Positions 11,834 through 20,297 of a stretch of DNA of 64,000 nt are shown here, piece by piece. Made by a program: the position numbers and the translations under genes. The notes below the pieces were generated by a model. That model was not told the DNA's origin. It did not search any database and saw only the letters and a program-made list of their open reading frames with translations. This stretch comes from Rhodospirillaceae bacterium (GTDB taxonomy: Bacteria > Pseudomonadota > Alphaproteobacteria > UBA6615): assembly GCA_038117265.1 (NCBI GenBank), contig JAYOFO010000003.1, positions 10,865-74,864 on the forward strand. Direction: 5' to 3'. Position 1 is the first letter of the stretch, and every line of letters begins with the position of its first letter.

Positions 11834-12838
11834 ATGTACGTTCGCTTGTCCGCATGCCTGCGCAAGCCGTTCCTGGCGCTTCTGGCGGCGATCGCCGCGG
11901 CCGCGTTCGCGGTGCCATCGGCCTTGGCCGATCGCGACCGGTAGGCGCAAGACTGGCCGAACACCGATTTCTCGCGCCACAGCGTCGACCTCGACGAGAT
12001 CTTCTCGGGCGGGATCGGCCGCGACGTCATCCCGGCGATCGACGATCCGACCGTCGGCGGGCTGGACAGGGGCGCCGAGGTCCACGACCCGCGCGAGCCG
12101 GTGATCCGCGTGAGCGTCAACGGCGCGACGCGCGGCTATCCGCTGTCGGTGCTGATCTGGCACGAGATCGTCAATGACGAGCTCGGCGGTGTGCCCATCG
12201 CCGTCACCTACTGCCCGTTGTGCAACTCCGCCATCATCTTCGACCGGCGGGTCGGCGACGTGGTGCTCGACTTCGGGACCACGGGGAACCTGCGCTTTTC
12301 CGACCTGGTAATATACGACCGCCAGACCGAGAGCTGGTGACAGCAATTCACGGGCGAGGGGATCGTCGGTGCGCATTCGGGGACGTCCCTGACGATGCTG
12401 CCCAACCGGGTGATGCCGTTCGGCCTGTTCGCGGCCGAACATCCCGACGCCGACCTGCTCGAGCGCCCGCCCTTCTTTCCGCGCAACTACGGGGTGAACC
12501 CGTATCACGGCTACGACACGGCGCCCGAACCGATGTTGCCCGGCCTGCCGCTGCCTGAGGGCGTGGCGCCGATGGCCTATGTCGTGGCGGTGGGCGACCA
12601 GGCCTGGACCCTCGACCTGCTGCGCGAGGCGAAGCGGATCGAGGCGGGCGACCTGCTGATCACCTGGGAACCCGGCCAGCTCTCGGTCCTCGACGTCTCC
12701 TACATCAAGGAGGCGCGCGACATCGGCTATGTCACGGTCCGGCGCCGCACCCCGGCGGGATATGCCGAGGCGCTGCACGACCTGACGTTCGCCTTCGCCT
12801 TCACCGCTTTCCACCCGGACGGAACGCTGCACAGGTAG
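11834..12838 (+). pseudogene. DUF3179 family secreted protein with two in-frame stops (TAG 11942-11944, TGA 12338-12340)
   Basis: One continuous frame holds a signal peptide (MYVRLSACLRKPFLALLAAIAAAAFAVPSALA), TAG, ...IPAIDDP...WHEIVND..VTYCPLCNS...DRQTESW, TGA, then QQFTGEGIVG... to the end. Confidence 0.75.
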
Positions 12839-16484: not shown

Positions 16485-16512
16485 TTGACAATGCGCCGCC
16501 GATCCCTATAGT
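16485..16512 (+). promoter_or_regulatory. Candidate rpsD promoter (TTGACA-16 nt-TATAGT)
   Basis: Near-consensus -35 and -10 hexamers about 105 nt upstream of the rpsD ATG. Confidence 0.5.
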
Positions 16513-16618
16513 TGCGCGCCATTCCCGGGGACGTGGATCGGCAACGACCGAATCCCGCATCGCCAAGGCCTTATAGCGGTGCTGACCGGGACAACAAAGA
16601 CAACATCGGAACAGAACC

Positions 16619-17233
16619 ATGTCGAAGCGGCATTCCGCGAAATACAAGATCGATCGCCGTCTGGGCGAAAACCTCTGGGGCCGGCCGAAGAGCCCGGTCA
16701 ACCGGCGCGAGCACGGCCCCGGAGAACATGGCCGCCGACGCAAGAAGCCGTCGGATTATGGCCTCCACCTCATCGCCAAGCAGAAGCTGCGTAAGTATTA
16801 CGGCGACGTCGGCGAGCGGCAGTTCCGCCGCTACTACGACGAGGCCGTGCGTCGGCGCGGCGACACGGGCGAGAACCTGATCGAGCTACTCGAGCGACGC
16901 CTCGACGCCGTCATCTACCGGATGAAGTTCGTGCCGACGATCTTCGCCGCGCGCCAGTTCGTCAACCACGGCCACATCCGGGTGAACGGCAAGCGCGTGA
17001 ACATCCCGTCCTACCAGGTGCAGGACGGCGATGTGATCGAGGTGAAGGACAAGTCGCGCGAGATTCCGCTGGTGCTGGAGGCGATCGCCTCGAGCGAGCG
17101 CGACGTGCCGGACTATCTCGACGTCGACCTCAACAACCTCAAGGGCACCTACGTGCGCGGGCCGAAGCTCGCCGACGTGCCCTACCCGGTCCAGATGGAA
17201 CCGAACCTGGTCGTCGAGTTCTACTCGCTCTAG
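16619..17233 (+). CDS. rpsD: 30S ribosomal protein S4
   Basis: 204 aa, [26 protein letters not shown]..., with a C-terminal S4 RNA-binding domain. Confidence 0.97.
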
Positions 17234-17913
17234 CCGAGCAGTTCGCGCAAGCGTTTCAGGAGGCCGCCCCCGGGGTGGCCTTCTACCGTTTCGGACCTGG
17301 CGCCGCCATCGCTGCGCAGCGCGTCCAGAACGGCGTCGACGGGCGGGCGGCGGACATAGCCGCTTTCCGTGAAGCGGTGGCTGACGCGGCCCTGCGCGTC
17401 GAGCACGACGATCGCCGGGTGCGGCACCCCGTAATAGGGGCTGTCGGACGGGTAGTTCTCGTTCAGCAGGCCGAAGGCGCGGATCACCTCGGATCGCTCG
17501 TCCGACAGCGTCGGGAAGGCGATGGCCTTGCGGGCAGCGAAGCGCGCTAGCGTGGGAACCGCGTCGTAGGTGACGGTCGCGACCTCATAGCCCAGCGCGC
17601 GCACCTCCTCGATCCTGTCGTTCCAGGCGACCGCCTGGACCACGCAATAGGGTCACCAGGAAAGCGAACGCGAGAAGATCAGGATCAGGCCGCGGTTGCG
17701 CGTCAGCGCCCGGAAGTTGCGCACCTGGTCTTCCTGATCGGGCACCGAAAGGTCATGAGGCAGGGCCGTGCCGATAGCGACGCCCTTTTCGAGAGTGTCG
17801 AGCGGGCCGCGCGCCTGCGCGCCGGCCTCCGCCGCCGGCAGGAGCGTCGAAAGGAACATGGCCGCAAGCGCGGCGAGGAGCGCGGTGCGAAGCTGGCGGA
17901 TGCATCGGCGCAT
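17230..17913 (-). CDS. Secreted AhpC/TSA (redoxin, Prx-like) selenoprotein, Sec at codon 87 (TGA 17653-17655)
   Basis: Track ORFs 17653-17913 and 17230-17643 are in one frame and join as ...[26 protein letters not shown]... (WUPYC in place of WCPYC). Signal peptide present, RBS GGGAG, SECIS-like hairpin downstream. Confidence 0.8.
17623..17638 (-). promoter_or_regulatory. SECIS-like hairpin CCAGGC-GGUC-GCCUGG, loop at +24 to +27 from the U of UGA
   Basis: Perfect 6-bp stem with a GGUC tetraloop inside the coding sequence. Identical 16 nt occur at the same offset in the paralog. Confidence 0.7.
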
Positions 17914-17964
17914 GCTTTGGCTCCCGGGCGTACCCGGCCCGTTCGAATACGCGTTCCGCGCGGC

Positions 17965-18621
17965 CTAGCTTGCGGGCTGGCTCGCGCGTTCGAGGATCGT
18001 CTCGATCTCGGCTTCCGACGTGTAGCCGTGGCCGCCCCAGATGTTGGTGACGACGCCGTCGGCATTGACCACGACGACCCGGGGGTCGGCCGTGCCGTAA
18101 TAGCGGCTGCCCTCGGGGAACCGGTCGTTGAACAGGTCGAAGGCGCTGATCACCTGCTTGTCCGGATCGGACAGCGGCGGGAAGGCGATCTTGCGGCGTG
18201 CCGCGAAGCGCTTCACGGTCTCGGCGTCGTCAGCCGTGACGGACGCGACCTCGAAGCCCCGGGCGCGGATTTTCTCGATGTTGTCGTTCCAGGCGACCGC
18301 CTGGGCAATGCAGGTGGGTCACCACGCCAGCGAGCGCGAGAACAGCAGGATCAGGCCCTTCTTGGCCGTCAGCGCCTTGAAGTTGCGGACCTGGTCGGTC
18401 TGGTCGAGCACCGCGAGGTTGTGGGGGATCGCCTTGCCGATCGAATCGGCCTCGAGCGCGAGCGCCGCATGCGGCGCCAGAAATGTGAGCGTGCCGCCGA
18501 CGATAGTGGCCGCAACCGCGTGGCGCATTGCCTGGGCCCGCCGGCCGAAAACCTTGTGTCGCATGGCTTTTTGTATGCCTTCGCGTTCAATCGTGCTTGG
18601 GCACAGGATATGTTCCGCCAT
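17965..18621 (-). CDS. Secreted AhpC/TSA (redoxin, Prx-like) selenoprotein paralog, Sec encoded by TGA 18319-18321
   Basis: ORFs 18319-18621 and 17965-18216 are in one frame and join as ...LILLFSRSLAW-TGA-PTCIAQAVAWND... A signal-like N-terminus is present. The true start may be 18564 or 18528. Confidence 0.78.
18289..18304 (-). promoter_or_regulatory. SECIS-like hairpin CCAGGC-GGUC-GCCUGG (second copy)
   Basis: Same 16-nt hairpin at the same distance from the UGA as in the downstream paralog, although the flanking codons differ. Confidence 0.7.
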
Positions 18622-18670
18622 GCCGCGCCGGGCAACGCAAATAAATGTGATTGCCCGACGCGGGAATGGT

Positions 18671-19231
18671 TCAGGCGGCGCGCCGGCGTCGTGTCGGTGC
18701 CTTGATCGGCTTCGGCACGCCGAGCTTTTTGTTCGTCTTCGAGACCTTCGACTTCGAATCCTTGGTGTAGAGCGGCCCGGTGGCGTTCAGGGCGTGGCCC
18801 TTGCGACGGCGGCGCTTGGCGTCCGCCCCCTTGCCCGCAAAGTGTTCCTGATCGTCATTGTCGGTGGCGGCGTACTGCACCTCGATCTTGTTGCCGTCCG
18901 GGTCGTAGACGTTGACCTGGCGCATGTTGATCTCTTCCAGCGAGATCACATCGTAGGGGATGTCGGCCTTGCGCAGCTTGCGCTGGAAGGCCTTCATCGA
19001 GCCGCCCGCGCGCAGCGCAAAATGCTCGACCTGCGCCTCGCCCGACTTGATGGGCTTCTTCGATTCCACCAGGTGGACGATCGCGCTGCTGCCGCAATAG
19101 TGCCAAGCGCCGCCGAACGGGAAGCTCGGGCGCTTGCCGCGCTTCAGTCCCAGCACGTCCTCATAGAAGGCCGACATCTCGTCGAGCCGGGTCGTGCGGA
19201 TGTTCACATGATCGAGCCAGTACATCGCCAT
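18671..19231 (-). CDS. VOC (glyoxalase/bleomycin-resistance/dioxygenase) family protein with a basic C-terminal tail
   Basis: MAMYWLDHVNIRT...HFAL... VOC fold, followed by a Lys/Arg-rich tail of about 55 aa (KRRRRKG...KSKVSKTNKK...TRRRRAA). RBS GGAGAA. Confidence 0.7.
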   Translation of the reverse strand: MAMYWLDHVNIRTTRLDEMSAFYEDVLGLKRGKRPSFPFGGAWHYCGSSAIVHLVESKKPIKSGEAQVEHFALRAGGSMKAFQRKLRKADIPYDVISLEEINMRQVNVYDPDGNKIEVQYAATDNDDQEHFAGKGADAKRRRRKGHALNATGPLYTKDSKSKVSKTNKKLGVPKPIKAPTRRRRAA

Positions 19232-19319
19232 CGCGTTTTCTCCGTTTCTCGAACTCGGTTTCGCGCATATTGCGCCGCCGTGCGGCACGTTTCAACGCGT
19301 CCGCGCGCCGCGGATCGCC

Positions 19320-20297
19320 CTAGACGATGCGCGTGCGCCAGATCTCGAGCGTATAGAGCACCAGCGCCGACCAGATGAACGCGAAGGTCAGCGCCTCGAT
19401 ACGCGTGAAGGGCTCGCCGAACACAGAGACGGCGAGCAGCAGGTTGCCCGAGGGCGCGATGTATTGCAGCAGGCCGATGGTCGCGAGCTTGATGCGCCGC
19501 GCGCCTGCGGAATAGAGCAGCAGGGGCAGGCCGGTGGCGATGCCCGCGAAGGCGAGCAGCGCGGCGAAGCCGGGCCCCCGCGAACCGAACGCGCCGGTGC
19601 CCGCGATTTCCATCCAGACGAGCACGCCGAGCGCGACCGGCAGCAGCAATGCGGTCTCGATCAGCAGCCCCGAGGAGGCGCTGACGGGGGCGGTCTTGCG
19701 GATCAGCCCATAGGTGGCGAAGGTGAAGGCCAGCACCAGGGTGATCCAGGGAACCGAGCCGTAGGCGACCACCTGGGTCAGGACACCGCAGGCGGCCAGC
19801 GCGACGGCGCCCCACTGCAGCGGCGACAGCCGCTCGCGCAGGATCACAAAGCCGAGCAGCACGCTGACCATCGGGTTCATGAAGTAGCCGATGCTGGCGG
19901 CGACGATCCGGTCGGTCAGCACGGCGTGGATGAACACCCACCAGTTGACGCCGATCAGCAGGGCGGTCGCGAACAGGATCGCGACCACGCGCCGGTCGCA
20001 GACGGCGCGGGCCACGGCCGGCCACTGCCGCCCCGCGGTCATCACGATCACCATGAAGACCAGCGACCAGACGAAGCGGTGGGCGGTGATCTCGGTTGCG
20101 GGCAGGGCCCCCAGCGCCTTGAAGTAGAGCGGGGTCAGGCCCCAGATCAGGAAGCCGCTCACGCCGAAGGCGAGACCGGCAGTCTCCTCGCTGGTGAACC
20201 GGCGGCGCGCCGGCGTATCGGGGGGCGTGGTCAGGGCGAGGCACTCCACCGGCGGGCGCCGGAATCGAAACGGGCCGCGAAGGATCGCGGCCCGCAC
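19320..20297 (-). CDS. rarD: RarD-like EamA/DMT family transporter
   Basis: GLAFGVSGFLIWGLTPLYFKAL...ITAHR is the RarD N-terminal signature. About 10 TM segments. The start is uncertain. Confidence 0.75.
   Translation of the reverse strand: MRAAILRGPFRFRRPPVECLALTTPPDTPARRRFTSEETAGLAFGVSGFLIWGLTPLYFKALGALPATEITAHRFVWSLVFMVIVMTAGRQWPAVARAVCDRRVVAILFATALLIGVNWWVFIHAVLTDRIVAASIGYFMNPMVSVLLGFVILRERLSPLQWGAVALAACGVLTQVVAYGSVPWITLVLAFTFATYGLIRKTAPVSASSGLLIETALLLPVALGVLVWMEIAGTGAFGSRGPGFAALLAFAGIATGLPLLLYSAGARRIKLATIGLLQYIAPSGNLLLAVSVFGEPFTRIEALTFAFIWSALVLYTLEIWRTRIV

Follow-up and report, generated by a model that had tools for sequence, protein, structure and literature searches.

Bacterial SECIS elements have been described both by a general model and in structural detail. 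In the bSECIS model of Zhang and Gladyshev, the hairpin has a loop of 3–9 nt and a stem of 4–16 bp, carries a G at one of the first two loop nucleotides (usually G[G/U]), places the loop 16–37 nt from the UGA and has an MFE of -7.5 kcal/mol or lower (PMC13188914), and a structural study of SelB describes the SECIS as a stem of 6–8 bp with a conserved G ~20 nt past the UGA (PMC4605307). The minimal SECIS of E. coli fdhF is a 17-nt upper stem-loop, nucleotides 15–31, in which SelB contacts G23 and U24 and which needs a bulged U17 and a spacing of 11 nt (PMC8659212). In the E. coli K-12 sequence, the fdhF UGA is followed by GCA-GGUC-UGC with the loop at +22 to +25, the position that the initial annotation of the locus studied here had given. 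Prx-like proteins with a thioredoxin-like UxxC motif are an established selenoprotein family, listed as 'Prx-like thiol:disulfide oxidoreductase, PF00578, UxxC', with 22 sequences in the Sargasso Sea data and an abundance of members in marine metagenomes (PMC1088965, PMC13188914).

Here we describe two tandem genes, A and B, in a 64-kb stretch of DNA (the window; G+C 68.5%), each with an in-frame UGA and a hairpin directly after it. Like the Prx-like family, both genes encode an AhpC/TSA-Redoxin domain with UxxC in place of CxxC and have Cys homologues. They differ from it in being two tandem paralogs, both with signal-like N-termini, and the clade to which they belong (alphaproteobacterial MAG and metagenome sequences) is further set apart by an invariant GGUC loop encoded by Q-A-V-A/V-W. 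In both mRNAs the UGA is followed by 14 nt and then by CCAGGC-GGUC-GCCUGG, with the loop at +24 to +27 from the U of the UGA, exactly as initially annotated. In geometry and energy these hairpins lie within the bSECIS model: the loop has 4 nt and opens with GG, the stem has 6 bp, 20 nt (+4 to +23) separate the UGA from the loop and the energy is -10.1 kcal/mol. They also lie in the coding region, directly after an in-frame UGA that matches a Cys of the homologues (W-U-P-x-C against W-C-P-x-C). We consider it very likely that both hairpins are bacterial SECIS elements, each within the coding sequence of a Prx-like UxxC selenoprotein gene.

The window hairpins share with fdhF the GGUC tetraloop, the 6-bp stem and the G and U at the second and third loop positions. 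They differ from it in that the loop lies 2 nt further out and the spacing is 14 nt instead of 11, and in having no equivalent of the bulged U17; the stem is perfect and the base at +17 is not conserved. The window stem is also G+C-rich, at -10.1 kcal/mol compared to -4.2 for fdhF, and a conserved lower helix lacks covariation support. By analogy, the window element would work like the fdhF SECIS and would not be its copy. A search of positions 16500–19500 against Rfam, SECIS models included, gave no relevant match at E up to 10.

The mechanism that we propose is taken from the established E. coli and Moorella system. With a ribosome at the UGA, nucleotides to about +13 would lie inside the mRNA channel and the 6-bp hairpin, from +18, would sit at the channel entrance, where the GGUC loop would be bound by the C-terminal winged-helix domains of SelB-GTP-Sec-tRNA(Sec). 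SelB would then bring the tRNA to the A site, competing there with release factor 2, and Sec would replace the nucleophilic Cys of the CxxC redox motif. [quoted passage not shown] Read in this way, the two elements would restore two full-length, probably exported, Sec-containing thiol-disulfide oxidoreductases that are annotated as four unrelated short ORFs. Both the mechanism and the selenoprotein family are known, and the understanding of Sec decoding is unchanged; the value of the locus lies in the correction of the annotation and in an example of RNA-level constraint on a coding sequence.

Two tandem Prx-like genes and their hairpins

With the UGA set to Cys, genes A and B both match Pfam AhpC-TSA (E ~1e-20) and Redoxin, and no NCBIfam model matched either gene at its cut-off. 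Gene A contains the motif SW-U-PYC and begins with an N-terminal hydrophobic, signal-like segment. Gene B, with 52% amino-acid identity to gene A, contains AW-U-PTC and reads ...LLFSRSLAW-UGA-PTCIAQAVAWNDNIEK... around its UGA. Because both N-termini are hydrophobic and signal-like, the two proteins are probably exported, and their translations point to genes A and B as probable Prx-like UxxC selenoproteins. The source annotation cuts gene A into ORFs of 86 and 137 aa and gene B into ORFs of 100 and 83 aa.

Table 1 Coordinates of the two Prx-like genes, their proposed recoding elements and the other genes discussed
Feature	Position	Strand	Basis or remark
Gene A, probable Prx-like (AhpC/TSA-Redoxin) selenoprotein, 227 codons	17230..17913	minus	Translation; Pfam AhpC-TSA E = 3e-20
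Gene A, in-frame UGA, proposed Sec codon	17653..17655 (TGA 17655-17653)	minus	Aligns with first Cys of CxxC in Cys-type homologues
Gene A, putative SECIS core hairpin CCAGGC-GGUC-GCCUGG, +18 to +33	17623..17638	minus	Encodes (V)QAVAW
Gene B, probable paralogous Prx-like selenoprotein	17965..18621	minus	Translation, Pfam; start 18621 or internal ATG 18564
Gene B, in-frame UGA, proposed Sec codon	18319..18321 (TGA 18321-18319)	minus	Replaces first Cys of CxxC
Gene B, putative SECIS core hairpin, sequence and offset identical (+18 to +33)	18289..18304	minus	Sequence, folding, comparison
DUF3179 gene interrupted by in-frame TGA ('YDRQTESW*QQFTGEG')	12101-12838; TGA 12338-12340	plus	
L042, Cys-type homologue (TGC, 'WCVYCKAQARAWNERL')	L042:1147-1758, GCA_044345325.1, JAZHCF013183735.1		

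The stem is a perfect 6 bp in gene B and extends to 7 bp in gene A through a possible U17-A34 pair. Taken alone, the 16-mer has a z-score of -3.8, and in a 45-nt context the predicted energies are -17.1 kcal/mol for gene A and -11.6 kcal/mol for gene B. For gene A, the fold proposed in the initial annotation was part of the MFE structure at context lengths of 45, 60 and 110 nt; for gene B it was recovered at 45 and 110 nt, but not at 60 nt, where the MFE is another fold; z-scores in the longer contexts were unremarkable. We also considered the hairpin as a terminator or promoter and rejected this: there is no U-run, and the scan calls neither hairpin.

The 16-mer is found in the window at these two sites only. 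Allowing up to two mismatches, the expected count is 0.26 and the matches were again only the same two sites, each read on both strands. Over 210 nt the paralogs are 74% identical, and their longest identical run is 23 nt (+18 to +40), followed by one of 12 nt; under an independent-sites model, a 23-nt run has P ~0.05. The identity of the 18 nt encoding QAVAWN that had drawn attention to the locus is thus real, but its extent is larger. A perfect stem of at least 6 bp in a loose SECIS geometry accompanies 71 of the 1245 TGA triplets in the window (5.7%). Since the loose model is satisfied by so many comparable triplets, geometric membership is weak by itself and the comparative evidence carries the case; the window by itself makes an only suggestive case for a SECIS.

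Conservation of the hairpin among related Sec-type genes

The genome scan found Sec-type genes at two loci of alphaproteobacterial MAGs (L001 and L004) and Cys-type genes at two more loci. The first alignment was discarded as a locus-search query, as it was too diverse. The metagenome scan used two peptide patterns of the C-terminal domain only, [EK]VATVTYD and FGLLNE[ND]Y, and is therefore unbiased regarding the hairpin. It returned 25 loci, 24 with W-TGA-P-x-C and one with Cys, and all 24 of the Sec-type loci had the hairpin at TGA+14. Together with P0002, which has TGA in its DNA and was counted as Sec-type, the two scans provide 37 Sec-type gene copies outside the window, several loci holding both paralogs in the order B then A. 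The hairpin is present at the same offset in all 37 copies, which come from other assemblies, the GGUC loop is invariant among them and the reading frame is kept across each TGA. The TGA aligns with the first Cys of WCxxC in the 30 homologues of the first search and in 60 of 148 cluster representatives. In the B-type copy of L028 the hairpin is weakened and register-shifted (-2.6 kcal/mol). The pattern W-UGA-CCN-NNN-UGY-N5-CCARGNGGUCGNYUGG matches the Sec-type genes of the clade in every fetched locus carrying one, and could be tried on other assemblies.

These loci bear on whether the two window genes could owe their shared hairpin to recent gene conversion between tandem paralogs, or could be pseudogenes split by nonsense mutations. 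The copies are indeed adjacent, and the 23-nt run is the longest identical stretch between them. However, the same hairpin recurs in orthologues of both paralog lineages from many independent assemblies, the tandem order of B-type then A-type, each with UGA and hairpin, is found in at least eight independent metagenome loci besides the window (L007, L008, L011, L013, L018, L022, L028 and L030), and the frame and the high GC3 run on past the TGA. Such an origin is extremely improbable and, as judged from the compared loci, already refuted.

A second alternative to a SECIS is that the hairpin is a by-product of a needed peptide, QAVAW, and that the RNA structure has no function of its own. Selection on the peptide cannot freeze third codon positions, and we analysed codon columns in the 32 unique Sec-type sequences. 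The codon before Gln encodes eight different amino acids, yet its third base is C in all 32 sequences; this C (C18) pairs with the last G of UGG. The third base of Ala+7, the first base of the loop, is G in 32/32, and Val+8, which supplies the other three loop bases, is GUC in 32/32. By comparison, third-base entropies are 0.64–1.88 bits at eleven further four-fold codons that are conserved (≥94% one amino acid), and flank GC3 spans 0.45–0.95 while the three third-codon positions in the hairpin never vary. This contrast between frozen and variable synonymous sites demonstrates selection on the RNA and argues against the peptide as its source.

The pattern of pairing points the same way. The six stem pairs are formed in 98.8% of cells, compared to 0.6–51% when the 3' partner is slid by 1–3 columns. 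At pair 21-30, 22 distinct sequences have G-C and five have A-U, the result of two synonymous changes (CAG to CAA and GCC to GCU) that occur together; at pair 22-29, 21 distinct sequences have G-C and seven have G-U, owing to an Ala to Val change. When the hairpin columns were left out of the tree building, sequences with A-U at pair 21-30 were spread over three separate clades and those with G-U at pair 22-29 over two; paired double changes in three clades would not be expected of a peptide by-product. Base composition was rejected as the origin of the CAA/GCU co-change: CAA/GCU occurs at GC3 0.45–0.74 and CAG/GCC at 0.60–0.95, and even where GC3 is 0.45 the remaining third positions of the hairpin are still G or C. 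The hairpin in 37 of 37 copies, the frozen synonymous sites, the double and wobble changes in separate clades and the agreement with the bacterial SECIS model all support the SECIS-like element under RNA-level selection that was first proposed. The family data provide a clear-cut case of a coding sequence constrained by an RNA signal: three synonymous sites are frozen, changes in the stem are paired and a fixed Val codon lies in the loop.

RNAalifold returned only the six pairs of 18–23 with 28–33. An extended lower helix was considered and set aside: it is pairable in 93–100% of 28 sequences, with zero covariation and a middle that is broken in ~40%. This lower helix would include pairing of the UGA with AUC(G) at +44 to +46, in the conserved Ile-Asp/Glu codons (window 17610–17612 with 17653–17655, minus strand).

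Cys-type homologues, a distant Sec-type gene and an alternative fold

The first search gave 30 Cys-type homologues, and the peptide QAVAW is absent from all of them, as it is from the 60 WCxxC-containing representatives among the best 148 matches of an exhaustive HMMER search. At the DNA level we read eight Cys-type sequences (nine loci, two identical). The GGUC loop is absent from every one of them, and all but one form 1–3 of the six pairs: six Cys-types (L002, L003, L029 and L036–L038) have 1–3 pairs in register and no hairpin, and P0187, which with P0186 makes up the two closest Cys-types and has the peptide QMVAWND, forms three.

The exception is the nearest Cys-type homologue, P0186 (locus L042), which reads TGC GTC TAT TGC AAG GCC CAG GCG CGG GCC TGG and encodes QARAW. 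It keeps all 12 stem nucleotides (CCAGGC/GCCTGG) in register, with the loop GCGG instead of GGUC. The initial annotation had reasoned that Cys homologues with the same hairpin would indicate conservation driven by the peptide; for L042 this is borne out in the stem and not in the loop. In the protein tree the Sec-types are monophyletic, with P0186 together with P0015 as their nearest Cys outgroup, and P0186 shares 53% identity with gene A, a similarity comparable to that between the two paralogs. For paralog B, a search for Cys-type relatives yielded two matches only. The L042 gene adjoins an EamA gene, as in the window.

The stem of L042 and the QMVAWND of the other Cys-type are what favours a peptide by-product. 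The peptide Q-A-x-A-W fixes four of the six pairs, and only C18-G33 and G21-C30 rest on synonymous sites, so that the chance of a full stem in one GC-rich Cys-type gene, given this peptide and high GC3, would by our estimate be ~0.2–0.25. Part of the stem is therefore compatible with the peptide. The L042 stem may be a relic SECIS left after a Sec-to-Cys change, or a pre-existing feature that was co-opted when Cys became Sec; it does not touch the synonymous-site evidence in the Sec-types.

Further evidence comes from a distant Sec-type gene. About 70 of the 148 HMMER cluster representatives (P0202–P0329 range) are N-truncated Prx-like fragments starting with '(M/V)ELQ' or 'MQLVELQ', of which one, L045, was read as DNA. 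In frame upstream of the fragment, L045 (L045:1186-1245) reads ...FFRSADW-TGA-PYCKVQLVELQ, and an 8-bp stem, UGCAGCUC/GAGCUGCA, presents the loop GUC at +25 to +27. L045 resembles the window genes in the position of the UGA in WUPxC and in a loop GUC that comes from the same Val codon +8. It is unlike them in its unrelated stem sequence, its 8 bp and 3-nt loop, its peptide (QLVELQ) and its DsbD_N domain. If an RNA signal is read at a set distance from the UGA, the loop should keep its place while peptide and stem sequence differ, as is the case here. Judging from the truncated fragments, mis-annotation may affect many further Prx-like Sec-type genes in other lineages.

A hairpin that merely accompanies the peptide is thus hard to reconcile with L045, in which an unrelated peptide again encodes a hairpin with its loop at the same place, with the invariance of GCG and GUC across 32 sequences, or with the loss of GGUC in every Cys-type read. 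We regard a peptide by-product as quite improbable, and the sequences compared here appear to have largely refuted it.

In some B-type sequences the hairpin drops out of the MFE structure if the bases close to the UGA are allowed to pair. In gene B (window 18295–18320, minus strand) and in the B-type copies of L008, L013, L018 and L030, the loop GGUC is matched by the complementary GACC of UGA-CC, and CAGG of the stem by CCUG of the Thr-Cys codons. Because of these complementarities, RNAfold favours, for several B-type sequences, another structure in which the UGA is sequestered. This fold may be a coincidence, and a ribosome sitting on the UGA would preclude it. It is conceivable, though improbable, that the clade uses an unusually rigid SECIS subclass, with an invariant GGUC, no bulged U and a 14-nt spacing, that could toggle between the SelB-binding hairpin and the UGA-sequestering fold predicted for the B-types, giving selenium- or translation-dependent control of two periplasmic selenoproteins; the QA.AW stem of L042 could separately reflect co-option at a Cys-to-Sec change.

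Decoding of the UGA codons and stop use in the window

A third alternative is that the UGA codons are decoded without SelB, either by a hairpin-stimulated near-cognate read-through that inserts Trp or Cys, or by a pause or programmed termination that regulates two half-proteins. UGA-C is a weak termination context, which would favour such events. The Sec machinery is also absent from the DNA at hand: searches for selA, selB and selD (tblastn with E. coli SelA, SelB and SelD) and for tRNA-Sec (ARAGORN) found none in the 64-kb window and the 9 kb beyond its start, although the contig is a metagenome contig of 88.5 kb and this says little about the whole genome. The same searches of all fetched loci gave nothing relevant. 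However, a CxxC redox protein would lose its activity with Trp in place of the nucleophilic Cys, and the UGA site matches Cys, not Trp, in all homologues. The loop and spacing fit the SelB-type model, and TGA is a functional stop in the window, where it ends 11 of the 36 long high-GC3 ORFs. We find SelB-free decoding very improbable.

Among these 36 ORFs, a crude set defined from stop to stop with a GC3 filter, TAG is used 23 times, TGA 11 times and TAA twice. As TGA thus serves as a functional stop here, decoding at the two UGA sites must be position-specific. The stop use looks TAG-rich for a G+C of 68.5%.

The window contains another gene with an in-frame TGA, a member of DUF3179, which is a listed selenoprotein family; the TGA is followed by a hairpin with a GGGGA loop. 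We considered this gene as a third selenoprotein in the window and rejected it, as Trp occupies the site in 109 of 109 readable homologues (59–81% identity). The site therefore reflects a TGG-to-TGA change and not a Sec/Cys pair. This change makes a leaky UGA in the window conceivable, a point in favour of SelB-free decoding, and the homologues indicate that the DUF3179 gene is a pseudogene or has a leaky stop and does not carry a Sec codon. The C-terminal fragment occurs on four contigs, so the TGA is not a single assembly error.
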